Positions 30,952-55,100 of a stretch of 64,000 nt of DNA are shown here, piece by piece. Position 1 is the first letter of the stretch, and every line of letters begins with the position of its first letter. Position numbers and translations under genes: made by a program. The stretch spans positions 2,976,001 to 3,040,000 of the forward strand of contig CM102283.1 of assembly GCA_046563655.1 (NCBI GenBank), read 5' to 3'. The notes under the pieces are model-generated. The model had not been told where the DNA came from. It saw only the letters and a list, made by a program, of their open reading frames with translations, and made no database searches. This DNA comes from Yuukianura sp. NJ FZ-2021. Its lineage: Eukaryota.

Positions 30952-31769
30952 GGTTGAAGTAAACTTGAGGGACTGAACTGTCCCCACCCGTTCAAATTTT
31001 CGCGCTGCTTCCATTGTCCCCACCCAGTGTCCCCACTTGGTGGGGACAAATGTGTCCCCACCAGCCTTAAACAGCGACTCCCCCTAGCGGTTGGTGTCGA
31101 ACTAACGAATTCGAGCTGGCAACGTTGTAGTGTTGCTTTAATGTAACGTAGTGTTGCTTTAATGTAAAAAAAAACGCTGTAAAAAAGGCAACTATGCACT
31201 AGGGCATATGTAATCAACATGGCGAGACTCATTCCGACAAACTTACACACTTTTAATCACTATTGCGAGACTTTTAGTCAGCCAAACCTACAGACGTAAT
31301 CACTATTGCATGCTTAACCAAACCTAACGCCCCGCCTTCGGCGCGGAAAATGCATTGTACCAAGAAGTTTTGGGCTGAAAGTAAACGAAGAAGTTTCTTT
31401 GCAGTTTCCGCGCCGAAGGCGCGGCGTTAGGTTTGGTTAAGCATGCAATAGTGACTGTGTCTGTAGATTTTGCTGATTGTCCTACAATAGTGATTTTTTC
31501 TGTAGGTTTTTCTGACTTAGTGTCACTATATTTATTACCTGTGCCCTGGGTGTAGGCAATGGAGCAACGGTACGACGTTGCCAGCTCGAATTCGCTAGTT
31601 CCACTTCAGCGGCTAGGGGGAGTCGGGGTAAGGCTGGTGGGTACACTTTTGTCCCCACCAAGTGGGGACAAATGTACCCACTTGGTGGGGACACTGGGTG
31701 GGGACAATGGAAGCAGCGCGAAAATTTGAACGGGTGGGGACAGTTCAGTCCCTCAAGTTTACTTCAACC
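30952..31769. mobile_element. 818-bp non-autonomous fold-back DNA transposon (MITE), GG...CC termini, 8-bp TSD; Merlin-like by termini
   Basis: About 80-bp perfect TIR beginning GGTTGAAGTAAACTTGAGGGACTGAAC. TSD CGGTATTG at 30944-30951 and 31770-31777. Repeated TGTCCCCAC motifs, and an inner inverted pair at ~31281-31354 / ~31400-31475. Confidence 0.9.
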
Positions 31770-31845
31770 CGGTATTGACATTTTGTTTACAATTAATTCT
31801 AGCAATTAGTGCTTGATTACCCGACTCACAGAAGAATTACGGACG

Positions 31846-34163
31846 ATGGACGTTGAGGCGGATGTTGTGAAGCAGAGGGTCAGTGAAACCGAGCCGAAAC
31901 TACCATTGATAGCATTGAAAGGTAATTAAAAAGCTAACCGTGATTTAATTTAAAAATAAGCATATGTTGCGTGGTTCAGTTAGCCTAAGCTTGTCTTTGC
32001 CTTTACTAATCAATCATACTTTTTTGTACAGTTTTACCGGTGCTGAAGGAACGACAACAACAACATGGTCTTCGTCACGGTGACTATCAACGCTATCACG
32101 GCTACTGCAGTAGGCGTCTGCGTCGTTTACGTGAAACTCTACGAATGCCGCAAGGAGATCGTAGACATTTTAAAAAGAAGGATGTAACTCTAGCTGAAAT
32201 TGATTCAGAGAAAGGAGATTCTCGTTTCTTGGAGATTCCGTTGACACTTACTGAACGGTAGAAGATCGAGTTACTAATAGCGTAGCGTAGACCTCTCAAC
32301 TAATTACTAATTGAATTTGTTTTAGAGCATGGGCATACGCTATGGCACTGAAGCAGGATTCCAACACGGAACCTCGGAAGAAGTTTCATTCAGTTTGTCG
32401 CATGCAGAAAGCTAGAAATCATGTCGCCGTGCTTCTACAACTGGCATCTGATAGTACTCGAGTAGATGCCCGGACAAAGTTAGAATGCGAAGCTTACGAT
32501 GCCTTTATCAATGCCACTTTCTTCTTCGAACTACAAAACTGGAGCGAGGCGATGGAAAACTTCAAACGAGCACAGTAAGAGTAACACTACTAGAAAACGT
32601 TATAGTACATCGAAATCATCGATTTATAACAATTTTCATCGGTGATTTTTATGTTTTGTTAGATCAATTTACAACCAAATCAGCCAAGCTCTCGGAGAAC
32701 ATCCAGACGCTGTCATCTACACTGATAAAATTACAGAGTTGATGCCTTCCATGAGATTCTGTGCATATCAAACAGGAGACAGTAAGTGTACTGAACTAAT
32801 TGACAAACTAATTAGTTTACTACACAATTACTTTAGTGTATCTTTAACATTTACTTGTATATTGGTATAAATCACAGAATTGGACATGTCTCAGCTATCA
32901 GCCGAGTTCAAATCAGCTGCTATCCAAGCCTTGATTGCCCAACGACCGAAGATGTCCGAGATTACTTTCCGGAACAACAAGATTTCAATTCCAGATGAAA
33001 AGATTGCTGGACTTTTGGCCAGAATCGAAGACATGGAGCAACAGGAAGATCGGAAGGTGGAAATGTATGAAGAAATCTTAGTTGAAGTTCGTGATGCGAT
33101 TCAAACTGTTCGTGATGCACTCAATGCTGAAAAGGAACAAGTAAGTCTCAACTCAATTAATTGATTAAATTATCCATTAACTAAACTTAACTAATCTTGT
33201 CTTTGAAAACTTAACTTTTTACAGCAATCAACTAAGATAAAACCATCTCTACTGCTCAACTACCTTTTGTATCTTCGTCTTCGCCTGACGAATGCCCGGA
33301 CGGAGCTTATGATTGAAGAGAAGACTCAGCCCAGAGATTGCATCCGTCTTCTTGAGTTGATTCTGCACAATTACCAGGAGATGTTGACCATTCCTGGACT
33401 GGACACGGACGACGACTTCCAGTCAGAAGTGGACCACTTGAACTACATCTTCAAGGCTAGACGATGTCAGTACTTGGCCAAGGCTTACATGGTGAGCAAG
33501 AACTGGGAAGGAGCCTTTGCTCTGTATGGACGTAGCATTGATTATGTTGAAAAAGGAGCCAAAGGTACGTAAATCAAAAAAAAATGAAGAAAAAAACTCC
33601 TTTTTCTTGAAAAATTTCTCATTTTTGTTTGAGTTTTCCATTTTTGTATTGATTTTTTGAATCTTTTTTCTGTTCCAGGTCTACCGTCCGACTCTCCGCA
33701 TCACAAAACCGTTGAGAAAGTGAAAGAAACCGCAGAGCAGTCACGGTTGGAGTGTCGGGCAAGAGCAGTAGTTGGAACCAGCAAGGAATTGGTTACGGAG
33801 TACACAAAACCAGAGGAACCTTTGATAGATCGACTGGACGAATTTGTACTAGACGAAAGTCTTACCACAAAACAACCCAATATCATCACATTTCCATGCG
33901 ATTTTGAGTAAGCATCGACTAGTCACTTCCATTTTTCATACTCTGAACTTTTTCCTTGAAATGAACTTTTTTTGTTTGTGAATTTTAGGCCTGTACCGAC
34001 CAAACCGTTGTTCTTTGACCTGGCCGGTCACGGTATAAAAATCGATGAAGCGAAGTTACAAGAACGTGCTCATGGAACTTCGCCTAAGAAAGGCACCGCT
34101 GCCAAGGGAGAGAGCGCTGGACTCAGCGGTTTCGTCAAAGGACTTTGGGGCTGGGGCAAGTAA
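31846..34163 (+). CDS. SRP68: Signal recognition particle subunit SRP68, 558 aa
   Basis: 8 exons: 31846-31921, 32032-32257, 32326-32574, 32663-32781, 32878-33140, 33225-33564, 33679-33907, 33989-34163. Motifs QQQHGLRHGDYQRYHGYCSRRLRRLR, ERAWAYAM, KPLFFDLA, GFVKGLWGW. Confidence 0.97.
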
Positions 34164-34333
34164 CGGGAAACTTTTAAAAAGAAATTATTGTTTAGGTTAG
34201 TTAACCTAACACTAACATTTAATTACATTATGTATTAAAAAAATCAATAGAGGAAAAGGAAATAAGTAACAGTTCTTAGCCTATTTTCATAAACTTTTGC
34301 TTCAGAAAACTTTAAAATACAAAACGTGTGTGT

Positions 34334-34561
34334 TTATGGCCGCCGCCGCCGCCTCAGCTGTTCCATCTCCACATGCAGCAGTTCATAATCCAACTCCAGC
34401 AGTTGACATTGCAGCTGATTGTTACTGAGGTCGAGTCGAGTTTTGAGAGCCGTAATCTCTTCCAGACGCAGCTCAAGTTTCGCAACTTCAAGTTTCCGAG
34501 CTTCATCTCTGCGTTGGGTCTTCTTGCGATTTCGCTCTTCCAGTCTTCGTTTCCTGCTCTC
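34334..34561 (-). CDS. Terminal exon encoding a degenerate bZIP-like basic region plus leucine zipper; upstream exons unresolved
   Basis: Acceptor TTTTTGATTTCAG is followed by 75 open codons: ESRKRRLEERNRKKTQRRDEARKLEVAKLELRLEEITALKTRLDLSNNQLQCQLLELDYELLHVEMEQLRRRRP*. Heptad L29/I36/L43/L50/L57/V64. Confidence 0.55.
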   Translation of the reverse strand, partial: ESRKRRLEERNRKKTQRRDEARKLEVAKLELRLEEITALKTRLDLSNNQLQCQLLELDYELLHVEMEQLRRRRRP

Positions 34562-36236
34562 CTGAAATCAAAAACGAAGTGGAATAAAATCGTAGTGTTG
34601 AAAAGTAGCGAGCGGTGAACGGCGGTGCACTGCGAGAAACCAAGGTGCCTTGACAACCGAATTATATTTCCTACAACAGGTTGTCCATTAACTCGGGGTT
34701 TGCAAAAATCTTCCTTCATGCAATTTTCCCCCTCCCCCAATTTCTATTAAATTACATACAATTATCATAGAAAGGCATTGCGACGCAAGTTTTGCAAATT
34801 ATTTGAGAAAATAGAACACGTCGAGTTATTGGACAACCTGGTGTAGAATAAACAATTTGTTTGTTTACGAATCTTGGTTTGATTACGGAAATGTTAAAAG
34901 TACTAATTTGAGGCATGTGACCTTTACATTTCCAGAACAGTGTAGGTGGCAGGTCACAATAATCTTCGTGTGACGTTAATAAGCCTTTGACCTTTGACCT
35001 CTTAAAGATTTTCAATGAAAATTTTGAAACAATTATTCAAATCTTAACTGAAGTAATTGGATTGTTTAGCCTAATTTTACCCCTGGACTCGTTACGCCAC
35101 CACCCGTCATGCCCAAATTTTTAGAAGATGTGACTTCTGAACGTAACGCACCGGATTTTCAAAAATTATGAATTCAAATAACTTCAAAATTTTGAAACTT
35201 TTGTACAACCTTTGGTATTGTTTACTTGAAAATGTTGTTCGGGTACAACAAAATCCTTCAGGATTCAAGGACAATGGGAACAAAGGTTTCAAAAAAAGAA
35301 ATCTAATTCCGTCCACTATGTTTTTGAAAAAGCGTTCGAGGACTAAACTTTGTTTTACTGCTTTTAAAAATTTGAAAAATGTTAAAAATCCGTAAAAGTA
35401 GAAATGGAGATTTAAGGAAATTGGAAAATGTTGGCGTTTCATTCATTTTTGTTTCAAACTGCATGCATAACTTATGAAACACGAGGTACTTTTTTATAGT
35501 TCTAGTGCTATAAGTTCTATAACTTGAAAATTGAAACTGCAATTTGCAACTGTGCAAAAATTATCAAAAGCACTTCAAATCAGTTGCCGATTGTGCTAAA
35601 TTTTTGCTGATTCGCAGAATTCGAAAATTTCACCGGCAGTTAAATGTTTTATTGGGTGCGGGTTCTCTCAATGTCAATAGAATGGAAAAAGTTAGGGTGG
35701 GTGGATATCTATCAAATCTTAAATAACTTAACAAAAAATTAACTTTAACTAACTTTCAACTTAACTAACTTCAATAGTCTTACTTTTTCTAAACAACTCC
35801 CTCATCAGTTAACTAACTTCTCTTCAATTAACTTCTCTCGTGCAGATTTTTGTCAAGGAAAACCAGTTTTTACAACATACACAAAAGCAGTAAGGTAAAT
35901 TGTTCTAAATTTTGAACATAATTAACACCTCTCTCTCAAATTTTCGAATTTTCAATTTTTCGAAGTTTTACCTTCCACTTAAACTAAACACGTTAGGTGA
36001 CACTTAAGTGTCAATTCACAAAATTGAAATCAGTTTTTTGACGACTTTTTCAAAAAAATTTTCATTTTTGTGAACAAACGACCGGGATTGAAGGAAAATT
36101 GATGAAGTTTTAACATTTTTTAAATACTTCGTCCAAAAAAAAATGTTCTGCAAAAAAACTTAAGTTTCTAAAGCTCCATATACTCCTGTTTTAAGTGGCA
36201 TGTCATGATCTAGCAAATAGTGAAAAATGAGTTCAG

Positions 36237-36310
36237 TGACCTTTAGAGGTCAATGACCTTTCGAGGTCAATGATCATTCAAGGTCAATGACATTTCGAGG
36301 TCAAAGGTCA
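36237..36310. repeat. 17-bp tandem array of nuclear-receptor half-sites (IR1/EcRE-type and DR1)
   Basis: TGACCTTTAGAGGTCAA TGACCTTTCGAGGTCAA TGATCATTCAAGGTCAA TGACATTTCGAGGTCAA AGGTCA. Confidence 0.75.
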
Positions 36311-36870
36311 CAATACTACTGAAACTAGCATAAAAAAATGCTAAACTAAATTAGTCACTGGTAAGGTTCATCAACTGGAATGAGATTTGAGTGACACGCG
36401 GTGGGTTGGATTTTTTAAAGTAAATTCTAAATTAATGAGATATTTGCATTGGACGTGAAGACAAAACTATGGAACAGACTTTGAATTAGTGAACAACTAA
36501 CTAAGCATTTAAGTAATTTAACTAATTAACTAAGCACTTGACTAAATTAACTCACAATTAACTACTTTTTATATACTTCTGAAAGAGACAACACTTGTAC
36601 TAAACACTTGACATTTTACAATTGACATTTTTACTTATTTTGACAACAATTTTTTAGACTTGAAAAGTTGTCGCTTACTTGGATACTTCAAGATGATTTT
36701 CCCGTTTTTACAACTTACCAGTTTTTTTCTCAAAATTCTATCCAATATTCGTTTTTTTCGGAATTCCTTTTTCAATTTTGTTTCGTTTCTTTGTGAACTC
36801 TTTCCATTTGGTTAGCTGCTATTTTTCTTGACAGTTGAGACATTTGTTGTGTATTTGGTGACGTAGTGTT

Positions 36871-39402
36871 TTAGTTGACACGAGATCCATCTCCACCGCG
36901 TCCACGGTTCGTGACAGCAGCAGTTCCGACACGTTGACCACGCCATTCTCCAATTCCTCCAGAAATCCCGTCCTGTCTGCCTTTGCGATGATCCGAACGA
37001 TGAAATTCAATGAACCGCAAGTCCCGCTCATCTTCTGGTTCGCTGTTCGTGTCCTTGTCACGGTCAATTTCGTCGCTGCGACGACGACGAATGATCGCAG
37101 GAGGTTGAGTGAAGAGACGCGGTGGAGAGGAGGGCTCGGCCATTAGCGGTTGAGGTGGTCCAGAGCGGGAACTGAAAAAAACGAAAACGTTTCAGAAACG
37201 AAAACGATTAGAAATAATATAAACGTTTTAGAAACGATTAGAAATACTAGAAACGTTTTGGAAACGTTTATAAAAAATAGAGACGTTTTAGAAACGTTTG
37301 CAAAAAACAGAAAAGTTTGAATTTTTTTTAGGTACCTCGAGTCCCGCCGAAATCGTTGTGACGTATCGGCCTTCTTTTGCACAATATCGATTGGTGGATT
37401 GACTTCCGGTTTCGGCCGTTGCAAAATTCTATTTGAACAAAAAGTTTTTCATCAAACTTTGATGACTGCTGCTTTATAAGTTTTTGTTTAGTTTTGGATG
37501 TAACTTACCGTAGTTTCTTCGTTTCCATTAGAGTCATTTCCGCCAGTTTCCGTTCGATTTCCCTCTCACGAGCAGCAGTGTCGACGGGTTTGGCTCCACC
37601 GAAAATGGCCGAGTTAGAAGCCGGAGTTGGTTCGGCTTCTGAAGTGGACTTTGTTCGTGGTTGCAAAACCAACTTCTTACGTTCACGCGGTGGAGATTTT
37701 GGCGAAGTGGGAGATTTCATACGACTGAAAATCATAAAGTTAGGAATTTTGAACTTTCACAAGTGGAAAGCAACTTTTTAAAAAGTTTTTTTTGTTACCT
37801 CGGCTCTGGCTCTCCAGCGTGGCCATGAACTTCTTCTTTATTCCCACCAGAGCGGGGCGGGGCAAAGGCCGACGGCGGTAGAGGTTGATCACGGTGCAGA
37901 ATTCTTGGCTGCACCGGAGGACGAACCAAGTCTTCACTGGACCGTGATTGGCTCCGGTAGTCCCCACGGTCACGGTCGTTTGAACTGTAGTAAGACCTGG
38001 AAGTTATGCACACAAGTTAAGTTAGAGTTAGTTTTAGTTAGATATCAATTAGTTTACCTAAGTTAACTAACACAAACTCACCCATTATTGCCACCGTGAC
38101 CATAATCTCGAGGTTGACGATTTTGATGATCAAAGTCTTGTCTGGTCGGGGCCACTCGGATCCGTGACGGTGGTGGCCCAATGTCGCCACGACCGTCGTA
38201 GAAGTCATTTGAGTAGCCACTGCTGCTGCCGCCACTCAGCTGTCTATCATAACCATACTGGTTGTTGTAGCCTCCGTGATTCTCAAATGACCTGCCACCG
38301 CCACCACTATGGTATTCCGATCGTCGGTTGTAGAAAAAGTTGTCTGGCTTGTTATTTCCATACTCACGTCTTCCTCCTCCTCCTCCCCCGCCATTGCCGT
38401 ATGTAGATCGCGAGGGGTAGAATGGCTGGTTACGTCCAAAGTCTGGCATTTTGTTATCCAGCGTAAGGTTGCCAGCGGCTCTCCAATCAGCTGGAGTCTC
38501 ATCAATTGGGCCCTTACGGCCTCCACCATCCCCATGTCCAGTTCCCAAACTGATTCGAATGGGCCGTCCTCTCAAAATTTTGTCGTTCATGATGAGAGCT
38601 TCAATCAAGTCCTCGCGATTACGGAACTCGACGTAACCGAATCCACGAAGTCTGTTGTTACTGTCACGCGGGAGACGTAACTCGTCGATTTCGAGTCCAC
38701 TGAAAAAGTGATACACTTCCTCATCATCAATTTCGTAGGAAATGTTGCCAAGGTGGGCTTTGTAGGGTGGAACACGGGGAATTTGGGAGTCGTCATAGGC
38801 AGGTCCACGACTGGCTCTTGGAGCACTGGGCAAAACAATCCGCTCCTTTTCGGTAATGAGTTCTGGAAGGACAAACGCAAAGATTAAACACTCAGATTGA
38901 TAGTTGATAGACATAGTGATACTGATAATGCTGTTAACTTCTGGAAGGACCGTACCATACTCTTCAACTTCGTCAGCCCATGAAGAAGTCATCGTATTAG
39001 TATTTTCCTTGGGTTTCTTTGGGGCGTATACAATATTTTGTCCAGCAGGCGGAGGTGTAGGTTCTAAAGACGCCGTAAATTCTTGCAACGAAACCGCTTT
39101 CTGTTTTGGTTTCTTGAGTTTTTCTGAAACGAAACAAATAAAACCACAAAGTTAGTATTTCATCGGCCTTGGCAAGGACTTCTTGTCACTGTGAGGACAA
39201 TGACATATGACATGTTCCATTCCTCAGTTTCTTGTCAACTTAACTACTCAATTAATCGATTACTAGCGCAGACTACTCCGGTTTTTACTTAGTATGTACT
39301 TAAACGATTAAATGACACCAAACTAATCATGAATCTACTGGAAAAGTACAGAAAGAAAGAGACAGAATATGAAGATACGAAATGTGACTTACTCGTTGAC
39401 AT
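36871..39402 (-). CDS. EIF4B: Eukaryotic translation initiation factor 4B, about 588 aa
   Basis: Exons 39402-39393, 39123-38956, 38862-38082, 37996-37799, 37724-37509, 37428-37336, 37171-36871. Motifs SWADEVE, LPSAPRASR, RRM (PYKAHLGNISY..RGFGYVEF), ERKKLVLQPRT, IFGGAKPVDTAAREREIE. Confidence 0.93.
37181..37318. repeat. Intronic ~30-bp minisatellite (AAACGTTTTAGAAACG core)
   Basis: 4-5 imperfect copies make up most of the last eIF4B intron. Confidence 0.65.
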
Positions 39403-40616: not shown

Positions 40617-40972
40617 TACTTATTTATTTGAATTTCAGGCCGAATTTTTAATTCTTCCCATCCACCGTTCAATAGGACTTTATTTCTTCCAATGTCCAGC
40701 GGAAGTGGCAATTAAGCCACTGCACGTTTAAGCACCCAGCAACACAGGTGGCAACATTTGTATTGCAGGTAGCCGCAAGCCACATAGCGTAGCCACCCAT
40801 TATAGCCGCAAAGTTGGTACGTTGTGAGCATACGACGAAGCTCGCTCAACCTTACTTCAACGCTTCTATCACGTTGCTGTCATTAAAATCAGCTGATCTG
40901 GTCAACACTGCCATCAGCGTTGGTGGTGGTCAATCAATTGATTCGATTAATCCACTATTTGACCTCAAGGTC

Positions 40973-43911
40973 ATGATTGACCCTGACCCACCACCACTCG
41001 TCAGTATCAGGACAGACACAGGCGTGCCAGGATTTAGAAGAAGACATGGATTCATCAGTCGAAATGCTGAACGAAATGCATCGATTGTCAGTGGATTTGA
41101 ACTTCCAGAACAAAATGGAAATGGAGAAGATTTATTCAATTCTAGTACAGGTTTGGACGTGGGAACGGAAGACGACAATGAAACGGAGAAGAAACGAAGA
41201 TTTAGAGATTATGCGAGGTCAGATGAAAGGTCAAATGTTCCGTTGGAATTGGGCAGTGAAGGAAATTCGGCAGCGTTTCCTGGCGGAGTTGGATTACTAT
41301 TCTGCAAACGATTTCTTAAAATTAACTGGATCTTATTTACTTCTATCTGCTCTATGTCAGCACTCCTTCTCCTGTTTTTGATCTTCATCTGTCTTTTGAG
41401 TAAGTCGAAACCGATACATTCTTACTATAAGCCTAAAAAGTGTATTTTAGTTTTGACATTTTCTGTTTTGGTTAATTTTTAGATGAATTTGTGGTGTACC
41501 AAGTGGGACTTGTGCCGAGCCGATTCTATAAAGTCCTTGGAGAAAGAGATTTCGATGGATTTGTGAGGACAACCGTCGTATCACTGGGAATTATCGTGGC
41601 AGTAGCTCTGGTATTTGATCAATAGAAAGATTTTGTGGATTAAAAAAATTTATTGCATGTAGTTAATCTTCTGATTAACCTTTTTTAAGGTAAAAAGTAT
41701 GATGGATTACACTTCCAAATTATTAACAGTCAACTGGCGACAGACATTGAGTTTATCACTGCACAAGATGTATTTTACGCGGATGTATTACTACCAACTC
41801 AACGCCCTTGACAAAGTCATTGACAATCCGTACGTTACAGTCACTTAAGCTTTTAGTAGTTTGTTGCAGGCGAATGCTGGGACAAACGCAGTACTTTTTG
41901 TATTGTTTCAGCGATCAGCGCATTACACAAGACGTCGACAAGTTTACTAGTCTCTACGGCGAAGTCCTGCCAAAGTTTGTAGTAGCTCCGTTTGTCATCA
42001 CCTATTACTCGTACCAAGCATTTTCCACGTAAGAGTCACAGACATGACGTGATCGCTAAATTTTAGTAAAACATACATGACCTTTGACCTTTTCGCTTCT
42101 ATAGTGCCGGTTGGCCTGGTCCGTTGAGCTGTTTTGTATTTTTCGTACTTGGGTCATTGGTCAACCGATTGGCAATGCTGTCCATAGTCAAACTTACCGT
42201 CCAACAGGAGAAATGCGAGGGAGATTTTAGGTAATCGATCGATCGCTTGATAATCTTTGATTGTTATGAAAATTAGAAGTTGAGAAATTTTTGTGTTGTA
42301 GATTTATTCACATGCTGATTCGTGTCAACTCGGAATCAATCGCATTTCAAGATGGATCTAGATGTGAAGGAGCCAAAGCAAATGAATCTCTGAACCAACT
42401 GATTTCCACACAAAACAAACTCTACTTCCGTCAATTCATTTTAAACATTTGCGTCAACTTGTTTCAGTACCTTGGATCCATTCTGAGTTACTTGATCGTT
42501 GCCATTCCAATATTCACTGGAGTCTATGACTCCTTGACCCCAACTGACCTTTCGGTTGTCATCAGTCAGGTAAAACGAAACTGATCAACTGATGTTTGAA
42601 ACTGATTTTTGATTTTGAATTTTTGAGCTTTTTGAAACTCGATTGACAGATATTAATCTAAATTTTTTCGTTTTACAGAATTCGTTTGTGAACATGTATC
42701 TCATCTTCCAATTTTCACAACTGGTTGACCTTTCTACTAAAGTCGCTCAAGTCATTGGCCTCACTCATCGTCTTTCTCAATTGATTGAGCGTTTAGGAGA
42801 ATTCAATGAAATCTGGAAAGACTTGTTTCCATTTGATGGAGAAGATGAGGCAAAATGTGACTTTTCAAAATTTGAGTATTACCGCCGAGTCCAGGAGGAA
42901 GTATTGCACAACGCAGACATTGGAGCCTGCGTCCCTCAACCAATCATCGCTTGGGAACTATCACATGTGTTCTACTCTCCGCCCTTTCGAGACGACGTTC
43001 TAGTTGCTGGTAACATTTTTAAAGAAATTAATTTGTGGAAGTGGTCGGTGGTTTTGCAAGTGGTAGGTGGTCGGGAAAGTGGTAGGTGGTCGAGGAAATT
43101 GTTGTTTTTTTTTTTCAAAAACGTTTTTTTTTTTAACGTTTTGCGACAGATTTGACGATGAACATCTACGTGGGGCAGTCTCTGCTGATTGTTGGTAGCA
43201 GTTCGGCGGGGAAATCGAGTTTACTGCGCATCCTCCGTGGTCTTTGGCCTCCTACACACGGCAGAGTGAAGCGATTCCATCCACCGGGTCCAGCCGGAGC
43301 GTTCTACTGTCCGCAAAAACCGTTTCTTACTGTCGGAACTCTTCGGGAACAAGTAAAACGGAAAAAAAAATGTTTGAAAGTGAATGTATGAAAACTAACA
43401 TTGACATTCCCGCGTTTTTTCGTCTGTGCAGGTCTGTTTCCCGCTCAAACCAAGTGAAGACGACAGTCAAAGTCGAAGAGATGCCATGCGGATTGTCAAC
43501 TACTTGAAATTACTCAATTTAAAACATGTACTGGATCGAGTTGGTGGGATTGACGTTCCAGTGAGCTGGAGCACGTAAGTTCATGTTTCATTTCAAAATT
43601 CAGCTTAAGTTTCCAAAATTCTGTTTGATTTCAAAAATGAATTTTTTTAATTTTTCAGATACGAATCTCTTTCACCTGGAGAAATCCAGCGCCTGTGCTT
43701 CCTCCGTGTCTTTTTCCATAAGCCTCTTCTGGCCATCCTAGATGAGGCTACAAGTGCTCTTCCAGAGGTCATGGAGACCATTTTGTACAAGGAATGTCAA
43801 CGACTGGGCATAACCACCATTAGTGTAGCTCATCGTGAGTCGGTTAAAGCTTATCATCAACGATTACTCACCTTGGAGTCACATGGAAGATGGACACTAA
43901 CGAACCTTTGA
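40973..43911 (+). CDS. ABCD4: ABC transporter subfamily D member 4 (lysosomal cobalamin exporter homolog), about 711 aa
   Basis: 10 exons: 40973-41399, 41483-41610, 41690-41829, 41912-42028, 42105-42230, 42302-42569, 42679-43009, 43150-43352, 43432-43574, 43659-43911. Motifs IDNPDQRITQD, EGDFRFIH, Walker A GSSSAGKSSLLR, LSPGEIQRL, ILDEATSAL, SVAHR. Start codon less certain. Confidence 0.92.
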
Positions 43912-44100: not shown

Positions 44101-45853
44101 TTACGTTTGGGATTCGTTTTTCGTTTGTTTTTTAGGTTTGGTTCGCTTTTTAGCCGAAAAACGACGTCGTGATGCGTTATTTTTTTGCAGGGCGGCCTTC
44201 AGCATTGCTGCGAGTTCCTGATTGGCCGGTTCCCAGTTGACCTTGAGCGATCGTTCTTGTATTCTGCGAGAAGCTTGTCCCAAAGTATAAGCGATTGAGT
44301 TAACTATCCGTTTTCTTTCAGCTGGACGCATTATTTCCCGCCAGTATCGGTCCACTTGACTGAAGTTATCGGAGTTCGGTGTGTCAACTGCTTCGATCAG
44401 GCCACCCTTAATCTTCGTCTTGGTCAGTTTTGCCTTGCGGTCAACATATGGACCATTGAACGAATTCGGAAACACGTTCGGTCCACCGTCTCCGTTTCCA
44501 TCGATATTCATGAAACCGTCTCTGAGGTACGAGTGACCTTTGACCCCTGGTGCAGGACCATTGATCGGAAGCTGGAAAAAGTTTGATCCAAGACGATGAA
44601 ACTGTGCATGAAGATAAGCAAACGGACGTCCTTGGAGTAGTCGATCTGGACTTAACTGGATACCGGGAACAAGATTTCCTGGATTGAATGCTGCTTGTTC
44701 AACGTCGTTAAAGAAGTCTCCTGGATTTTGATTCAAAACTAATCGCCCAACTTCTATAAGCGGGAATTCCTTTTCAAATAGTATCTTGGTAGGATCAAAC
44801 AAATCAAAGTCAGCTGGTTTGGAATCTGATAGGGTAAACTTCTGTACATAGAGAGTCCAACTGGGATACTTCTTTGATCCAATGGCGTTGTAGAGGTCAC
44901 GTGTCATATAATCCGGATCTTCTCCAGCCAATTTCACACAACTTGTGAACTTCGCTACTTTTATTTTTCGATTTGGACGAAGGTGATACCGAACAAAGAT
45001 GTGATCAGTTGTTCGTTTCGTTCCGCCGACCCATCTGAATGAATTAACTGAAAAGCCGTGCATGTGTCTAAAATTTCGCGGGAACCCGAAATCCGAATGT
45101 TTCAAAAGTACGTGCAATGTGGACTCGGGGCGAAGAGACACAAAGTCATACTCGGCATCGTAGTCTTTGAGATTCGTTACGGGATTGCGCTGGAAAGATC
45201 TCGTCATGGCCGGATCTAGAATCGGATCACGGCTAATCGATACCGGAACGCTCTGCATTAACAGATCGTAGTTCCCGTCTACTGTTTTGAATTTGACCGC
45301 GAAACCGCGTAAGTCCCCCAAAGTGCTCGGACCGCCCTGGTTCCCGGCGAACTTTGAAAATCGGACTACTACCGGCGTTTTGGTACCGGTTCGGTGAAAC
45401 ACTTTGGCTTTCGTGTACCGTGACATGTCCTGTGTCACTTCAAAGTATCCCTTGGCTCCGGTCCCTTTGGCGAAATGAAGCCGTTCCGGAATCCGTTCCC
45501 GGGTGAATGTGGCCAGTTGAACTTGTGAGTTCAGGTCTAGTAGAAGTATCGGACCCTTTCGGCCAATCCCGAGAGTCGCAAGGAGCGTTGGTACATGCGC
45601 GTAGTTGTTACCAGTGGCTGGATGCTTGCTACGATGACTGGCAGCCCACAGTGGCAGCTGATCTTCGGCAGGCCCTACAAAATCAAAATTTAAACTGAAA
45701 GTTTTGAAACAAAATTTTGAAAACGTGTTTATGTTCTTGTCGGTAATGTCAATTAATCCCGAAAAAAATGTGCTTTTTAAAAATAATTTTACCTGCCGGA
45801 ATAACTTCAAAACAAAACCCAATTAGGCCAACTAGAATCAAAATCGCCTTCAT
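44101..45853 (-). CDS. Secreted catalase-like protein 1 (544 aa); distal His and Asn substituted
   Basis: Exon 1 45853-45793 encodes MKAILILVGLIGFCFEVIPA (signal-peptide-like); exon 2 45674-44101. Motifs RERIPERLHFAKG, RGFAVKF, VEQAAFNPGN, LLQGRPFAY. Confidence 0.9.
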
Positions 45854-46158
45854 TTTCCTGCGCACCACAAAACGAAAGTATAACGTTATTTCTTTTTTTT
45901 TTTGGTTAAAAAGCAAATTTTGCTTTTGCTTCCAATTTTATTATGATTTTATTCATGAACTGTCACCTCACAAGTGTTTTAATTTTAATTAGTAACATTA
46001 AAATTAATTAGCCGATTATGGAAACAAGTTTTTGGGGTCAATGACTTCTGCAGTTTTCACGCAGAAAACAAATGCGTCCACAATCCTCTCAAATATGTTC
46101 TTTTATAACTTAAAATTACTTTAATAATTTAACTTCTTAATTTTTCAAATTTCCTGCC

Positions 46159-48044
46159 CTATAACATCTTAACTCCTCCTGAAAACTTTTTCTTTCGGCC
46201 GGCGAGATTGGCTGCCGGTTTGGCCATTTCTTCTCTGAGGCGTTTTCCAATCTCGTCGTTGATTGGATCCCAGTTGACCCGGAGTGACCTCTCCTGAATC
46301 TCCTTGGAAGCTCCGGCTAAGTGTTGGGCCAGGGCTACTATCGTGTCGGTTCTCTGTTTCGGACTCATGATTTCCCGGTAATACCGATCGATTTGGGAGT
46401 AGTGGTCGGCGTCTGGCAATCCGTTATTATCATAGGCGTCAATTTCTCCAGCGTCAACAGAGGTAGGTGACCCCCCGACTGACGGGTCAACGTATGGACC
46501 GTTGAATGAGTTAGGGTAGTACGCAGGGCCTCCATCCCCATTTCCATCTATGTTCATCGCTCCATCTCTAAAGTAGCTTTGACCTTTGACCTTTCCCAAA
46601 GGTCGGTTGATCGGAAGCTGAAAAAAGTTGGATCCGAGACGATGGATTTGCGTATGAAGGTATCCGAGGACTCGTCCTTGGAGAAGTCTGCAACATCCAA
46701 AAATCATGGGTCAATTTTTGAGTTAATCCGGATCTCAGAGTCAGGATTAACCCTTATGTTAACCCTCAGTCAGCTGGCTACGGTTCCCGTGTTCTACCCT
46801 TGTTCACTAACCTGTCAGGGCTAATTTCGATTCCTGGAATTAAATTTCCCGGGTCAAATGCTACTTGCTCCACGTCATTGAAGTAGTCTGTTGGATTTTC
46901 ATTTAAAATCAATTTTCCCACTTCGATAAACGGAAAATCGTCCGGAAACAGTATTTTGGTTGGGTTAAACATATGGAATTTTGCTGCCTCCACATCCTTC
47001 ATTGTAAACATTTGGACAAAAAGTGTATACGTCGGGTACTTCTTTTTTGCAATGGCATTGTACAGGTCACGCACCATATAATCCGGATCGACTCCAGCTC
47101 TTCGCTTATACGTCTTAATGGAAGACGTAACCGGTTTCAAGTCCGGTATCACGTGGTACCGGACGAATACCGGTTTTTCCTTCGTTTCGGTACCGCCAGT
47201 CCACTTGAATGCATTAAGCGCATGACCTTCCATGTGGCGGTAATTTTTAAAGTAACTCAAATTTGAATGGATCAGAAACACGTTGAAGGTTGCCTCAGGT
47301 CGGTAGGAGATAAAATCAAAATACATGTTCGGATCGTCGATAAACGTTGACGGATTCTTCCTGCGACTTCGAGAAAGTTGGGAAAACAGAATGACGTCAG
47401 AAATCGGAAAAACCGGAACATTGATCATTGTCAAATCATAAACTCCTTGTTCAGTTTTGAATTTGATTGAAAATCCGCGCTGATCCTGGACAGTGTCAGC
47501 TGATCCGAGACTACCAGCCACAGTAGAGAGTCTGACGACAACTGGAGTTTTCTTCCCAACGTGGGAAAATAGGGTTGCCCGAGTGAATCTTGACATTTCG
47601 TTTGTGACGACGAAGTACCCCTTGGCCCCTGCTGCTTTAGCATGCACTACTCGTTCTGGAATACGGGCATTTACGGTATTGGCGATGTATGATTGGTAGT
47701 TGAAGTCCTGCCACACGAGGGGGCCCTTAGCTCCAACACTTTGAGTGGCTGTAAGGGACGGAACTGGTTGATAGTTCCCTCCAATGGCACGAACTTTTTT
47801 GGGATTTGCACGTCTCCATTTTTCTAACTGCTTGTCAGCTGGATCCCGCCCTGGAGAAGTTCAAAATTCAAAATTTATAGAGAAAAAAATTTTTTTTTCA
47901 TAAAATTTTTTGAATTCGGGAGGTCTAGTCAGTCTAGTGTTAAATGTTGTTGAATGTGTTAATCGTACGGTAGGTAGAGGTGAACGTGACAAAAACCGCC
48001 AAAACTAAAATTTGAAAAAATAAAAAAAATGAAAAGCGAGTCAT
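46159..48044 (-). CDS. Secreted catalase-like protein 2 (547 aa)
   Basis: Exons 48044-47969 (MTRFSFFLFFQILVLAVFVTFTSTY), 47850-46812, 46687-46159. Motifs RIPERVVHAKA, RLSTVAG, VEQVAFDPGN, LLQGRVLGY. Confidence 0.92.
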
Positions 48045-48311
48045 TCTCTGTTTCAATGAAAAAAAAAGAACAAAGTACAGCGAAATGCAACTTTCTGTGA
48101 TTTCTATGCTGAAGTGTTTGAAAAGCAATAATTTACAGAAATTTTCTATTCATTGACAAACTGTCATCTCACAAGTGTTTTAATTACTTCATGTGACACT
48201 AAAATCAATTAACTTATTATGGAAACATTTGTTTGGGGGGTCAATGACCTCTCAAGTGCAAACGCAGATACAACGTGTCCAGAATTCCCTCAAATATGTT
48301 TTTAAGTAATT

Positions 48312-50400
48312 TTAACTTTTTGAATTTTTAAATCTCCCACTCCTTAACATCCTAACTCCTCCAGAAAACTTGTTTTTTCTTCTTCCAGCGACATTGCTTG
48401 TCTCTTTGGCTTCCAGTTTGGCGATTTCTTGCCTGAGGCGTTTTCCTATCTCGTCGTTGATTGGATCCCAGTTGACCCGGAGTGACCTCTCTTGGATCTC
48501 CTTGGAAACTCCGACTAAGTGTTGCGCCAGGGCTACTATCGTGTCGGTTCTCTGTTTCGGACTCATGATTTCCCGGTAATACCGATCAATTTGGGAGAAG
48601 TGGTCGGCGTCTGGCAGATTGTTATTATCATAGGCGTCAATTTCCCCAGCGTCAACAGGGGTAGTTGACCTCCCGGCTGATGGGTCAACGTATGGGCCGT
48701 TGAAGGAGTTAGGGTAATACGCAGGGCCTCCATCGCCGTTTCCATCTATGTTCATCGCTCCATCTCTAAAGTAGCTTTGACCTTTGACCTTTCCCAAAGG
48801 CCGGTTGATCGGAAGCTGAAAAAAGTTCGGTCCGAGACGATGGGTTTGTGTATGAATGTATGCGAGGATTCGTCCTTGGAGGAGCCTGCAAGTTTTAAAA
48901 AGTTTCATCGGTCAATTTCCGGTAACTATTCGACCATTGATTTGGATTTAGAGTTCCCGCCGCGCGTTCCGTTTCCGTTTTTTACCAAAAACGGAAACGA
49001 AACGACAGGTACCGTTTAAAAAAATACAAAAAACGAAAACGGAAAGTCGTAAAACGGGAAACGAAACGGACTTTCCGTTTTTTTTTAATTTTTTGAAACG
49101 GTACCTGTCGTTTCGTTTCACGTTTTACCCGGAAACGGCGGAAACCCTATTTGGATCTATATGAAACCAAACATTGACCCGGCTAACCTGTCAGGGCTGA
49201 TTTCTATCCCGGGAATGAGATTTCCCGGGTTATAGGCTACTTGCTCTACGTCATTGAAGTAATCGGTTGGATTTTCATTCAAAATCAATTTTCCCACTTC
49301 GATTAACGGGAAATCGGCGTGAAACAGCATTTTGGTTGGATCGAACATATCAAATTTTGCCGCCTTCACATCCTTCATTGTAAACATCTGCACAAACAGT
49401 GTATACTTTGGATACTTCTTTCTTGCAATAGCATTGTACAGGTCACGCAACATGTAGTCCGGATCAAGTCCCGCTCTTCGGTTATACATCTTAACCGAAC
49501 ACGTTACCGGTTTCAAGTCCGGTAGCATTTGGTATCGGACGAATACCGGCTCTTCCTTAGTTTCGGTACCTCCAGTCCACTTGAATGCCGTAATTGCATG
49601 ACCTTCCATGTGGCGGTAATTTTTAAAGTAACTCAAATTTGAATGTAGCAGAAACACGTTGAACGTACTTTCGGGTCGGAATGAGGTATAATCAAAATAC
49701 ATGTTGGAATCGCTAAGATACGTCGACGGATTTTTCGTGCGACTTCGGGAAACTTCGGGAAATAACATGACGTCACGAATCGGGAAAGCCGGGACATTGA
49801 CCATCAGCAAATCGTAAATTCCTTGTTCAGTTTTGAATTTGACACCAAATCCGCGCTGATCAGCGGCCGTATCAGCTGATCCGAGACTACCAGCCACCGT
49901 AGAGAGTCTGACGACAACTGGAGTTTTCTTCCCAACGTGGGAAAATAGGGTTGCCCGAGTGAATCTTGACATTTCGTTTGTGACGACGAAGTACCCCTTG
50001 GCCCCTGCTGCTTTGGCATGCACTACACGTTCTGGAATGCGGGCATTTACGGTATTGGCGATGTATGATTGGTAGTTGAAGTCCTGCCACACGAGGGGGC
50101 CCTTAGCCCCAACACTTTGAGTGGCTGTAAGGGACGGAACTGGTTGATAGTTCCCTCCAATGGCACGAACTTTTTTGCGATGTGCACGTCTCCATTTTTC
50201 TAACTGCTTGTCAGCTGGATCCCGCCCTGGAGAAGTTCAAAATTAAAAATTTATAGAGAAAGAAAAATTTCTTAGAAAATTTTTTAAATTGAGAATGTCT
50301 AGTGTTAAATGTTGTTGAATGTGTTAATCTCACGGTAGGTTGAGGCGAACGTCACTAAAACCGCCAAAACTAAAATTTGAAACATTGAAAAGCGAGCCAT
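48312..50400 (-). CDS. Secreted catalase-like protein 3 (559 aa), close paralog of protein 2
   Basis: Exons 50400-50334 (MARFSMFQILVLAVLVTFASTY), 50226-49188, 48885-48312. Same motifs as protein 2, with LLQGRILAY. Confidence 0.92.
48949..49149. mobile_element. 201-bp hAT-like MITE in intron 2 of catalase-like gene 3
   Basis: TIRs TAGAGTTCCCGCCG and TAGGGTTTCCGCCG (12/14). 8-bp TSD TTTGGATT / TTTGGATC. Multiple AAACGG motifs and an internal inverted repeat. Absent from the paralogous intron of gene 2. Confidence 0.8.
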
Positions 50401-50851
50401 TCTCTGTTTCAATAAAAAAAGAACAAAAGAACAAACAAAAAGCTCATCAATTTTCTGGGATTTCTAAGCTGAAGTGTTTCAAAAGCGATAATTTAGTCCA
50501 TTTTCACCTGTGGAATTAATTAGTTTAGTTAACTTAGTTAATTAGTGTTGAAAGTAACGTTATTACATTCTGTCAAACAGGCTTCCGCAGTTAGTTGAGG
50601 TAAATGTCCTTCGGTTTTTTTTATTCAACTTACTTTATGTTTTATTCATATTTTCAAGACCTAAAAATCTTTGAAACCTAAAATTCGAAATGTTTTAGAA
50701 GCTGTCAAGGCAACAGTTCCGTTCCGTATCGTTTGTTCCGTTTACAAACCAAATTGGAACTTTACGCGGATTTGAATGCATTACAATGAAATTTTAGGAT
50801 GTTCTTCAAATTAAAATTTTATTTCGAAAAATATGTTTCACTGATTATCAA

Positions 50852-52173
50852 ATGGACGGAATTCATGTAGTGGACGCTGTTGAGGACGCTGACGAAGAAG
50901 ATCACGAAGACGGGGACGAAGTTTTCGCAATTCCGGCAGTTCCGCCGCTTGTTCAAATTCAAAATGGCTGCTGTCCCAAACTCTGGAAACTTTTTTTCAT
51001 TGTGCAAACCTGTTTTGTTGTAAGCGCACTTACTGTCTTTCTGACTTCTATTTCTAGAATTCAATTTCCCAATGTTAAGCTCAACTTCTTAATGTTAAAA
51101 CTCAATTTCCCAATGTTAAACTCGAGTTCCCAATGCTAAAACGCTTAGAATCTTAATTTCCCAGTGTTAAAACCGAATTTCTCGTCTTCCAGCTGTTTTT
51201 CCTGGACATTGCCTTTGTACCCTTGAAGAAGCATGCGTGTAACCCCTTCAAGGGCCTCTCCTGGAACTACGAAAACAACACAACCTTCAGGGATCGGTCA
51301 TGTCACGGTCATGGATGCTGGGAAAAACAGGAACAGTGTTTACAGAACTGCTTAGCCTATGACCGTTGGCTGGCCGATTGGGAGGCGGATCCAAAATCAG
51401 CCAATCGCCATCGTCATCCAGACATCTACCCAAATCCACTCTGTTTCTACTGGGAAGAAGGCAATTGGACAACGGCCGAACAAGATTCAAATTTTTCCGC
51501 CAGAAAATTCCTTCTTATGAAAAAACGTGCGGAAACGACCGACTGGCGGCGCAGAACAGCTTCTTTCTGGAACGTCTCAAGCCTCATCATTCTCCTCGTC
51601 TGGTTCGTCATTTTCTGCAGTCAATGTACCCAGGACTACGTGAGTTCATTGACCTTTGACTTTGACTTTTGACCTTTGACCTTTGACCTTGACCTTAGAA
51701 GATGACCTCTGTCCTGCTCCTTGCTGCGTCACTGGCCATGTACTACGTTGGGAACTACTTGGGCCACGAAGCGATTGACATGCTGCGATGCTTCACGCGG
51801 TGGGTAGAGTTCAATGACACGACAGGACGCCCTCTGGGGTACAATTTTTTTGTGTTTTGCGGCGACGAGCGATCGATCACCGTCCACGATGAGCAAGGAT
51901 TGCAAGTTTTTTACCTCCCGCCAATGCCCCGGAGTTGGACCATTTCGTATTACTTGCTGGTAGGTCAATGACCGTTGACCTTTGTTTGACCTTGACCTTT
52001 GTAAGTGACCTTGACCTTTGACCTTTCAGGGAATTCGAGCTACGGTGCCGCTGATACTGATTTTCATCTGGGCATGCTGTGCCTTCCTGGGTCCAGATTT
52101 CTACCACCATCGAGCCACCACGTTTGTACATGTGATCATGCACAGAGTGTGGCAAAATGCTAGACGAGGATGA
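50852..52173 (+). CDS. Uncharacterised 339-aa four-TM protein with claudin/PMP22-like topology
   Basis: Exons 50852-51019, 51193-51639, 51699-51959, 52030-52173, all phase 0. TM1, a long Cys-rich loop, a TM2-TM3 hairpin, a second loop, then SWTISYYLLG leading into TM4. Confidence 0.75.
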
Positions 52174-55100
52174 CCTTTGACCTTTACTGGTTTCATGACC
52201 TTTGACCTCTACTTGCTCCATGACATTCGACCTTCAGTCTGCTACGTGACCTTTGACCTTTCTACATTTTGTGAAATAAAAGAGAAAGTACAGAACGTCA
52301 AAATTATTTAACTAACAATTTGGTTTACTATTTTCAATTTCAAGTTCCAAAGACTAAAACTTTTGCTTTCCCGGATTTCCTTTCTTATGCTCAAATGCCC
52401 AAATCTTTCACTCTTTCGAAAAAATGACATAAGAAAAAGTTTTTTTTTTTGCTAAACTTTTGTATCTATTTTTGAAAGTTGACAACTTCGCGGCAGACGA
52501 AGTGAAAAGTGAAAGTTCCAACCCATTCAACCCTTCTCAAAATGCACTTCTGAATTGTTTTTGGCTAACTTTCTCTTTAGCAAAATCTTTTCGAAAGAAC
52601 AACTTTAGCTTATATGCTTTCTTGGGTAAATAAACTTTCACTAAAATCAGAAAAGAATGAAACAAAATTTCGAAAATTGTTTCATCCACAGTTCCTTCCA
52701 ATTCAAGCACGAGATGTTTTTTTCTTTTTTTGGTAACAAAAAAAAAACAACAACAGAACGAAAGGCGAGAACTAAAAAAAAACTTTGTCTTCTTGAAGTT
52801 TGGGAAGATTCTGGTTTGAAAAAAAGGTTTCAGAAAGGCCATAACCAAAAATTGAAAATTTTCGAAATTTTTAACATCGGATTGTCAAAATTTAGTCATC
52901 TGTCATACTGTTTTCAGTTGGTTTGACTCTAGCTTCGCTTCAATGCATAGAGAACCCTTGTATCTGCGTCCTGATTACAAATTCGGTTGAATTTTAAAGT
53001 CTGCTTTCTTTTCTACTTTCACTTTCGGATGTAAATTTTTAGAATTTCAAAAAATAAAAAAAGCTTCCTCTTCATTCTTTTCTTTTGTGTCAATTTCAAC
53101 TTATTCTAAAAGCTTTATTAGCCTCCCTCCCCCTCATTACCATGTTAGTATTAAGTATAACGTAGGCATGGTTAATGTTATGTTAGGTTGGAGAAAGAAG
53201 ACAAAAGTGAAAGTGGAGGCTCCATTTGGTATTTGTTCCATTTTACTTAAAAATGCACCCTCCTTTTTCAATTTTTCATTATGGCTTTTAATGGATCTTC
53301 AAACTAACAAAAGGTTTTCATTTCTCCATTCACTCTTTTCGTTTTTCAAAAAAAAAACATAATGAAAAAACCGCCATTTCTAATTTTCAACACGACTTTC
53401 TCTCTCCCCTTGGTCTCAGCTTTTCATTAACATTTAATCACCCCCTTCCATTTTAAAAACCATATGGTTCCAAAAACAAAAAAAAAAAAAAATGAAAAGT
53501 GAAAAATTAAAAATGAAAAAAAAATTAAATATGAAAAGCTTTTTTTTTCTCGTTTTACCTTTACACTTCAAAATTTGGTTGCAAATTTTGCCCCTGTGGA
53601 AGAGAAATGTTAAAGAAAGCGGGACAAATTACTACGGAGCGAAAGATTTTCAATGAATTTTGCACCCAGTTTTAACTCCGCCTTTGCGGCGCGTAGATAA
53701 CAAAACTTTGACCAAAAATGTGAATGACCTTTGGTGACCTTTGTTCTTTTAAATGAAGTTTTGAAAAGCTTATCACTGTAGTCATAGCTTGCAATTGTGT
53801 GGTGAAATTGAAGACGCACAAAAGGCGCGAAAGAGTTTAAATCTTCGCGCTCTCTCTTCATCTGCTTGTCTCTTAATCCTATTGTCCTTTTCCTTCTGTC
53901 TCAATCTCCCCCCTTCCTTTGTTTACACCAAAGTTTGAAAAGCTGTGAAATGACATGGACTAGGAAAAGTTTTCGGAGTGGAGAAAATCAAGACAAAACA
54001 GAAACTGAAATGTTGCAAGTTAAGTGAAGTTGAGGAAAAGTTTAAACTTTGGTGCGCTTTCACCATTGTTTGAAATTAGGCAGAGTAAATAGAAACTAGA
54101 AGCTTCTCTGCATTCTTAATTAGTTAAGTAAATTGTCACAAAGAGACTCAGCGTCTGTCACAGAGATACTGTGACGGGGTGCCCGCGGTTTTCGTTTTTG
54201 GTGCTAATTTTCAAAATCTGGTTAAGCTTTGAATCCGGCATTACGGATTTGTGCCAATTGTGCCCTCAACTTGATTTGCGGTAAAACGTCTCTTTAAACA
54301 TAAAAAAAGTGGTCAATACAAGAGAAACAAAATGTTTCTGTTCAAAAAAAGCAAAATTCAAAATTTTCGTGCGAAAAATTTATCAAGATTTTCCTAATTT
54401 AATGTTTCCTGCTGATTTTGGAGGAATTGAAAGCCAACTATCAAAAAAAAAATTTCTGAATTTTATTTTTTCTGTCGTGCTTTTGCAGAGTTTAGAAAAA
54501 AAATCTTTCGCGCCAAGCCAAGTAATCCTTGGCTCTTTTCTTACCCATTACTTTTATAACCTATTTTGGTAGGAAATAGACTGAAATCGTTACGCGGGAT
54601 ATTTTTTTTTTTTTGAAAATTCGAACTTTTCCGCGCTTTCTGCTTGATGGTTGTTGATTGGACCAAAAGTAATTAAGATTGAAGTTGAGATGAATTAAAT
54701 GGAGGATGATGGGAGAGGCATTAGTTGAATTAAGAGCTTCCGCCTTCTCTGTTTTAAGTCCAATCCCATTTCCTTTTGGTCCAATAAAAGTGTCATTCTT
54801 CCTTGCCAAATTCTTTTTTGTGTGCCTAACTTAACAAAAGTTAGAGCCACCATGGTGGGGCCAAGCCACCATGAAACCCACCATGCTCGGTGGAGCCAAA
54901 AACTTCCAGCACAGATAAGCCCACTTGCTGAGCCGTCCATCTTGTTTTTGTTCATAAATCTTTTTGTGCAGGAAAAACCGAAAAACTAACCGCTTAATTT
55001 CCTGCTTCTGAATTTTTGGCTCCTGAAACTCTGTTTCATGTCACGAAGTTGCTGATTCTTATGCAAAAAGAGTTAAAAAACTAGCGAATCAGCGTGTTTT

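Follow-up and report, generated by a model that had tools for sequence, protein, structure and literature searches.

What becomes of an animal catalase when the distal asparagine of its active site is exchanged and a hydrophobic leader exon stands in front of it? The question is raised by three genes, here called A, B and C, in a 64,000-nucleotide stretch of DNA from Yuukianura sp. NJ FZ-2021 (GenBank GCA_046563655.1, contig CM102283.1, positions 2,976,001 to 3,040,000 of the forward strand), which we refer to as the window. The genes are arranged head to tail on the minus strand, at the place where an earlier note on this DNA had put them. We suggest that they encode exported, matrix-bound extracellular haem oxidases or peroxidases that act on an organic substrate and are not H2O2 dismutases, a reading to which we give a probability of about 0.45.

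One secreted animal catalase is already known, the nematode protein CATLe (PMC11386320), and paralogs without the asparagine recur in many animals. Extracellular catalases have been predicted in a metazoan survey (PMC9925728). Lineage-specific catalase clusters of Orchesella cincta are mentioned as antioxidants (PMC4987106), and a catalase expansion in the skipper Lerema is described as being of unclear relevance (PMC5635620); the passages of these two papers on the expansions hold no residue analysis. A full-text search, which covered few subscription journals and no genome-paper supplements, found no published description of secreted arthropod catalases lacking this asparagine, so a prior mention is possible.

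The distal pocket, the channel and the NADPH site

All three genes match the Pfam family PF00199 (E 2.8e-131, 1.3e-105 and 1.3e-106), and the match to human catalase (E 1e-121) is free of gaps over human residues 44-200. Residues are given in mammalian numbering, taken from the bat catalase P0096, and are compared with a canonical set of 115 matches (P0007-P0123 minus the divergent P0059 and P0084, which were moved to the comparison set). Position 148 is Asn in 115/115 of these and Gln, Ile and Val in A, B and C, respectively. The earlier note had reported these three replacements, and they hold without a register shift. In B and C, the Asn next to position 148 corresponds to the regular Asn149, which is invariant in the canonical set (115/115), so there is no sign in the sequence of a shift that would bring it to the catalytic place. 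Such a shift was rejected at this level, given also that the region is gap-free and that the same x-Asn pair is found in EasC, a fungal catalase-fold enzyme discussed below. At the sequence level, the altered site thus appears not to be undone by the neighbouring Asn.

The proximal R-x3-Y motif, Arg354 and Tyr358, is kept in all three genes, as had been claimed. The description of the distal site was correct for position 148 but overlooked that in gene A His75 itself is replaced by Phe, with a His at position 74. Further changes in gene A are Phe116, Ser153, Ile154, Asp161 and Phe168. B and C have Val at 74 and keep His75, Ser114, Asp128, Phe153, Phe161 and Tyr358; Gly147 has become Met and the main-channel residues Pro129, Phe154 and Gln168 are replaced. 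The residues H194/R203/K237, which in clade 3 catalases form the site for reduced nicotinamide adenine dinucleotide phosphate (NADPH), are L/F/R in A, F/L/I in B and F/L/L in C. For Asn148, Ser114, His194 and the main-channel residues we assume the roles usual in catalases. The roles of His75, Tyr358, Arg354, Phe161, Arg203, Lys237 and His305 are described directly or through their EasC equivalents (PMC12003167).

The exchange of His75 for Phe in gene A is the same as in PDB entry 3hb6, which our Foldseek list gives under the title 'Inactive mutant H54F of Proteus mirabilis catalase', and gene A may be catalytically dead. A sequencing error behind the changes in gene A is unlikely, as 15 base changes would be needed to restore 8 canonical residues. 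Contigs over the gene A stretch differ at 4/1025, 5/557 and 16/651 bases; two of the compared runs, X1 and X2, may be the window's source sample.

Leader exons and basic tails

The modelled proteins have 544 (A), 547 (B) and 559 (C) residues. All five introns have GT-AG borders, intron 1 is in phase 1 in each gene, and B and C contain a second intron, in phase 2. The claim of a separate hydrophobic first exon, joined in phase 1 to a catalase N-terminus, fits all three gene models; the second intron of B and C had gone unmentioned. The N-terminus RDPADKQLEKW, which had been given for every gene, is found in B and C but not in A, which starts PAEDQLPLW.

The leader encoded by exon 1 is 20-25 residues long, and in A, B and C its most hydrophobic 11-residue stretch has a Kyte-Doolittle mean of 2.9-3.1. 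Only 1/115 canonical catalases reaches 2.4 within its first 40 residues. An upstream exon is required, because exon 2 of A, B and C contains no Met ahead of the His75 position. Two (A), two (B) and four (C) combinations of an ATG and a phase-1 donor are available upstream of exon 2. The hydrophobic ones are all the modelled exon 1, and the rest are non-hydrophobic peptides of 3-22 residues or a shorter form of exon 1. From hydrophobicity and splice geometry we infer that exon 1 is spliced in, that the leader may be cleaved off and that A, B and C would be secreted.

It is very improbable that the leader exons are mis-modelled and that the proteins are divergent intracellular catalases. Exon 1 is modelled from sequence alone and the donor of gene B, GTACGA, is only moderate, which would suit this explanation. 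However, exon 2 offers no usable Met, and in the short gaps upstream of A and B the hydrophobic exon is the only long in-frame option. In addition, the leaders of A and of B/C are dissimilar in sequence yet equal in hydrophobicity and share the intron phase, and P0006, O. cincta P0249 and Folsomia candida P0436 likewise start with a hydrophobic leader.

At the other end, the claim that the proteins carry basic tails and lack a canonical peroxisomal targeting signal 1 (PTS1) is borne out. A PTS1-like C-terminal tripeptide is absent from A, B and C, and their final 25 residues carry a net charge of +9, +5 and +9, compared with a median of +2 and a maximum of +6 in canonical catalases. The isoelectric points are 9.5-10.0 (canonical maximum 9.15, n=115), and they are 9.4-9.6 in four of the five full-length relatives examined, the Folsomia relative having 6.8.

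Duplication and selection in the array

None of the three frames contains an internal stop. B and C have a dN/dS (ratio of nonsynonymous to synonymous divergence) of 0.27 (dS 0.25, dN 0.069), and from this value and the intact frames it follows that the genes are live and under purifying selection. The identity of A to B and to C is about 50%, with synonymous sites saturated in both comparisons. The nonsynonymous differences between B and C are concentrated at positions 121-200, around the channel and the pocket, where 30 of 75.7 fall within 80 of 504 codons.

The first ~115 codons of exon 2 (47850-47500 and 50226-49880) are near-identical between B and C, with dS of 0.03-0.09 rising to 0.3-0.5 thereafter. 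This suggests a recent gene conversion between B and C that ended just short of the diverging channel region. Contigs of all four sequencing runs compared, from two studies, link 46139 to 48325 and omit 2185 bases, about one duplication unit. The junction represents either a haplotype without gene B or a 3' end of B that was converted to that of C. Intron 2 of gene C contains a palindromic element (48988-49126, 80% inverted match), where sequencing depth peaks in every run. It is probably a small mobile element present in repeated copies.

A springtail-type clade that keeps the haem residues

The closest relatives of the array are the environmental proteins P0005, P0006, P0124, P0245 and P0325 (44-53%) and a F. 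candida 'catalase', P0266/P0394. For this sole named member (OXA61823/XP_035705842) there are two gene models that disagree, and their N-termini seem to be incomplete. In a quick tree, A, B, C and these relatives form a clade of nine rows with a Shimodaira-Hasegawa-like approximate likelihood ratio (SH-aLRT) support of 99. In the careful tree, from which the partial P0325 was excluded, the clade of eight rows has a support of 100/100 and joins two more divergent springtail proteins, from O. cincta and F. candida (100/99), a placement from which a springtail host is probable. The canonical springtail catalases form a separate group; grouping the clade with them gave p 0.21 in the approximately unbiased (AU) test and is thus compatible with the data but without proof. 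A scan of metagenome contigs with 80 loci contained no clade member (positions 148-149 were NN in 76, ND in 1 and unparsed in 3), and a profile search with the family alignment gave no new member among the 120 matches listed.

Over the nine rows, position 148 is Q, I, V, L, L, S, L, V and L, i.e., aliphatic in seven. Asn148, His194, Arg203, Pro129, Phe154, Ile165 and Gln168 are lost in 9/9 rows, and the Lys237 position is hydrophobic in 8/9. The haem residues behave differently: Arg72, Arg112, Ser114 and Arg365 are kept in 8/8 covering rows, Arg354 and Tyr358 in 9/9, and His75 in 7/8. As only 47 of 150 near-invariant positions are retained clade-wide, keeping all six haem residues would be improbable by chance (~0.0008, for six residues selected by their known role).

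This pattern bears on the proposal, which we consider unlikely as a whole and most likely for gene A, that the proteins are pseudo-enzymes, i.e., secreted proteins with a haem-binding or structural role, which would sequester haem or contribute to an extracellular matrix. The match of gene A to the inactive H54F mutant and the loss of many invariant residues speak for it. Drosophila Catalase B (CG9314) has, in addition, been found in the SDS (sodium dodecyl sulfate)-resistant paracrystalline fraction of sperm (PMC6388916; name link in PMC3510041), and a cluster of catalase-like proteins from calyptrate flies, which may be orthologous to CG9314, shares His75Phe and Asn148Gln with gene A. However, CG9314 has also been called an enzyme with catalase activity, with a protective effect reported (PMC3510041). 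A purely structural role would need neither His75 nor Ser114, which 7/8 and 8/8 rows of the clade keep despite deep divergence, and the differences between B and C are greatest around the active-site channel.

A somewhat more doubtful alternative is that the proteins are slow extracellular catalases, in which His75 alone supports a reduced H2O2 dismutation, sufficient to damp peroxide at the surface of the body or within the gut, compare CATLe in plants. The canonical residues retained in B and C are in line with this, and E. coli HPII variants at Asn201 reportedly keep a small fraction of their activity. Secreted active animal catalases exist (PMC11386320), and the Capnella coral allene oxide synthase (cAOS) has measurable catalase activity with a kcat of 303 per s (PMC5617202). 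On the other hand, selection for peroxide removal would retain Asn148, which is universal in the canonical set and replaced throughout the clade together with channel residues, and the explanation is inapplicable to gene A.

Asn148-less catalases in other animals

Of 17 divergent rows from animals or without a name, a set selected by eye that gives no rate, 15 lack Asn148. By database name, these rows include Trichoplusia/Chrysodeixis, Loxostege, Leguminivora, Tetranychus, Brevipalpus and Bradysia, as well as Artemia, Periplaneta, Uloborus, calyptrate flies and the frog Engystomops. Several of them have hydrophobic leaders at the N-terminus. Among 138 anchored representatives (of 154), which are enriched in odd and mis-called proteins, 67 are without Asn148, and the commonest substitute is Leu (29). 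Of the divergent paralogs, only those of springtails group with A, B and C; the others fall elsewhere or lack firm placement, the deep branches being poorly resolved. Hence a repeated origin of Asn148-less animal catalases is likely as judged from these sequences.

The exchange of His75 for Phe recurs in three other paralogs, namely the P0084 cluster of calyptrate flies, P0256 and the second domain of P0004. The P0084 cluster, which combines it with Asn148Gln as gene A does, is nevertheless grouped with Drosophila catalase. The catalase-like P0261 of Engystomops pustulosus has Leu at 148 and an altered NADPH site, keeps His75 and Tyr358 and has no leader. P0126 (Planococcus citri) and P0013 (unnamed) combine an intact His75 and Asn148 with a hydrophobic N-terminus and are candidate secreted active catalases.

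Proposed function

We suggest that the clade arose by duplication of an animal catalase and that H2O2 dismutation would no longer be its main role. The new exon 1 would route the protein into the secretory pathway, where haem would be held by Arg72, Arg112 and Arg365 together with the Tyr358-Arg354 pair. The high isoelectric point and the basic tail could tether the enzyme to an acidic matrix, e.g., cuticle, egg coat or gut lining. In B and C the kept His75, the aliphatic residue at 148, Met147, the replaced channel and the hydrophobic residues at 194, 203 and 237 indicate that the haem most likely activates O2 or peroxide, and a small hydrophobic organic substrate would be oxidised. The substrate might sit where NADPH used to bind, which would parallel EasC, or enter by a main channel that has opened up, which would parallel a peroxidase, and we regard the two as about equally likely. 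Gene A, having lost His75, could be an inert haem-binding member or carry a second rebuilt site made of His74, Gln148 and Asp161. The note's interpretation is thus partly supported. Its extracellular haem-protein family with altered chemistry is favoured by the selective retention of the haem residues, by the rebuilt distal pocket, channel and NADPH site throughout the nine-member clade and by the hydrophobic leaders of annotated springtail relatives.

EasC, a proven O2-dependent oxidase, is a catalase-fold chanoclavine synthase that uses O2 and superoxide, and its substrate occupies the pocket that once bound NADPH (PMC12003167). His53 and Tyr343 are retained in it, its F181, A215 and L283 stand for R203, K237 and H305, and its inter-pocket tunnel includes L126, N127 and I128 (PMC12003167). 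From the sequence of PDB 9jdb and the primers of the same paper, L126 maps to Asn148 and N127 to 149. EasC and CnsD (PDB 9jdb/9jdc) resemble B, C and their clade, though not A, in keeping His75 and Tyr358, in having an aliphatic residue at 148 followed by Asn149 and in being hydrophobic at 129, 150, 203 and 237.

Several observations weigh against the proposed exported oxidase or peroxidase. The electron relay of EasC, M130, F131 and F132 (positions 152-154; PMC12003167), is not conserved, being V/A-F-P in B/C and V-S-I in A, so that B and C keep only Phe153 and A none of it. The substrate-binding Tyr193 of EasC is not kept either, Tyr215 being replaced by His or Phe. Loss of the NADPH residues is expected for any catalase outside the cell and is no specific evidence for a new substrate pocket. 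Moreover, 30/138 of the divergent representatives lack Asn148 yet have Arg203, and the association between the two changes is therefore weak (odds ratio 2.6, without phylogenetic correction). About one third of the invariant positions is altered in each clade member, and some losses may therefore be drift. The F. candida P0394 ends in the PTS1-like CKL and has no basic tail, and the clade may thus not be uniformly secreted. Finally, the array is not flanked by any recognised biosynthetic partner gene, its neighbours being housekeeping genes or genes with no Pfam match.

Features of the array and neighbouring genes

The coordinates of the array are collected in Table 1.

Table 1. Exons, active-site codons and duplication units of genes A, B and C, in positions of the window.
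Feature	Position	Strand	Description
Gene A exon 1	45793..45853	-	ATG and 20-residue hydrophobic leader, phase-1 GT donor; best-donor option of 2 in the intergenic gap
Gene A exon 2	44101..45674	-	Whole catalase domain (PF00199 + PF06628) and basic tail to stop
Gene A positions 74 and 75	codons 45472..45477	-	His at Val74 position, Phe at essential His75
Gene A Asn148Gln	codon 45253..45255	-	
Gene A Phe161Asp	45214..45216	-	Acid at distal haem-face position (distal by EasC F139)
Gene A R354-x3-Y358	44614..44628	-	Proximal motif
Gene B exon 1	47969..48044	-	25-residue hydrophobic leader, phase-1 donor
Gene B exon 2	46812..47850	-	His75 kept, 47642-47644; Asn148Ile, 47423-47425
Gene B exon 3	46159..46687	-	To stop; R354, 46672-46674; Y358, 46660-46662
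Gene C exon 1	50334..50400	-	22-residue hydrophobic leader, phase-1 donor
Gene C exon 2	49188..50226	-	His75 kept, 50018-50020; Asn148Val, 49799-49801
Gene C exon 3	48312..48885	-	Basic tail, stop; R354, 48870-48872; Y358, 48858-48860
~2.2-kb tandem duplication giving B and C	45958..50495		Units 45958-48158 and 48159-50495; 83-87% nucleotide identity

An ATP-binding cassette (ABC) transporter gene (~41700-43911, plus strand) is convergent with gene A and ends 190 bases from its stop; the one exon scanned has no Pfam match. From its Walker and signature motifs we take it to be ABCD4-like. Upstream of gene C lies a divergent neighbour (50851-52200, plus strand) without a Pfam match. Its product has an acidic N-terminus, a segment rich in Cys and Trp and hydrophobic helices, and its introns carry TGACCTT-type repeats. 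A frame of 229 codons at 40793-41482 (plus strand) ends in a transmembrane-like segment and has no Pfam match either. The region 24447-39151 contains housekeeping neighbours, i.e., a Fringe-like gene, SRP68 and an eIF4B-like protein with an RNA recognition motif, and what is presumably a proteasome AAA-ATPase subunit, recognised by eye. Within it, nested inverted repeats at 30951-31770 (111 bp at 94%, and a 200-bp palindrome at 31278-31476) resemble a foldback element or a miniature inverted-repeat transposable element.

Comparison with known catalase-fold systems

A model of gene A built from a 122-row alignment has a predicted local distance difference test (pLDDT) score of 92.4 (30.6 for a single-sequence prediction). 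It superposes on Proteus catalase (1e93) with Z 46.6 and a root mean square deviation (rmsd) of 1.8 over 433 residues, on EasC with Z 38.6 and rmsd 2.4 over 372 residues at 30% identity, and on cAOS with Z 25 and rmsd 3.0-3.1 over ~300 residues at 17% identity. Human erythrocyte catalase (PDB 1f4j, clade 3) shares with the window proteins the full-length fold and the animal-type N-terminus (template modelling score 0.81, 41-42% identity), as well as the haem arginines and Tyr358/Arg354. The window proteins differ from it by the signal-like exon, the missing PTS1, the basic tail and the replaced Asn148, NADPH site and main channel, and in A by the loss of His75.

Repurposed catalases with proven new chemistry are known from fungi (EasC and CnsD) and corals (cAOS and the hydroperoxide lyase cHPL). 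The coral enzymes (PDB 1u5u, 3dy5) likewise use an animal catalase fold for another reaction and keep the His and the Tyr, and the earlier note had chosen allene oxide synthase as its analogue. This analogy is less supported. cAOS keeps the Asn (N137) and has Thr66 beside His67 (PMC5617202), which makes it a poorer analogue than EasC; its distal T66-H67-N137 corresponds to V-H with I/V in B/C and to H-F with Q in A. It is also truncated and fused to a lipoxygenase, whereas the window genes are full-length and stand alone. It is accordingly improbable that A, B and C convert fatty-acid hydroperoxides to extracellular oxylipins in the manner of coral allene oxide synthase or hydroperoxide lyase. 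The shared fold, the more hydrophobic distal pocket with its altered channel and the fact that N137 is dispensable for cAOS catalysis (PMC5617202) would allow it. The residue at the Thr66 position, the closer structural match to a full-length catalase and the lack of any lipoxygenase, both as a fusion and among the ten neighbouring ORFs (open reading frames) scanned with Pfam, argue against it.

The fungal EasC, itself the subject of a comment (PMC12967829), remains the closer parallel to the proposed oxidase. It has no leader exon of the window type and belongs to a biosynthetic pathway. Where its relay retains Phe at the position of Phe154, the clade has Pro, Asn, Lys, Asp, Gly or Ile, and this replacement would open the main channel in a way that suits a peroxidase. 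A single clade with the EasC relative P0320 (E 4e-186) was rejected by the AU test (p 0.006), and with it a horizontal transfer from a fungal EasC, so that the likeness is convergent. The PDB search with P0320 lists EasC; in searches with the fungal proteins P0328 and P0290, it was not among the listed matches. It can be speculated that animals have repeatedly, and apart from fungi, made exported enzymes of the EasC type, which use O2 or superoxide on substrates in the former NADPH pocket. The array would then be part of a springtail radiation that makes defensive or surface chemicals or cross-links coats, and gene A would have a second rebuilt site, where a shifted His74 and a new distal Asp161 take over from the His-Asn pair in the manner of peroxygenases. 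We consider this extended proposal unlikely.

CATLe of Meloidogyne incognita is an animal catalase with a signal peptide, to which the hydrophobic leaders of the window proteins may correspond; it is exported from a gland and is an active H2O2 dismutase of ~42,500 U/mg (PMC11386320). The 'catalase-like' paralogs of Folsomia, Orchesella, Lepidoptera, mites, cockroach, spider, calyptrate flies and the túngara frog have mostly lost Asn148, and a leader is often present. If the proteins are indeed oxidases, the antioxidant reading of 'catalase expansions' would be wrong for many annotated arthropod catalases, and a signature of kept His75 and Tyr358, an aliphatic residue at 148, hydrophobic residues at 203 and 237 and a leader peptide would pick out a class of extracellular haem enzymes that has so far been hidden. 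The array provides a natural test series for these comparisons, with the recent paralogs B and C differing mainly around the channel, the older A without His75 and a further member in the laboratory springtail F. candida.

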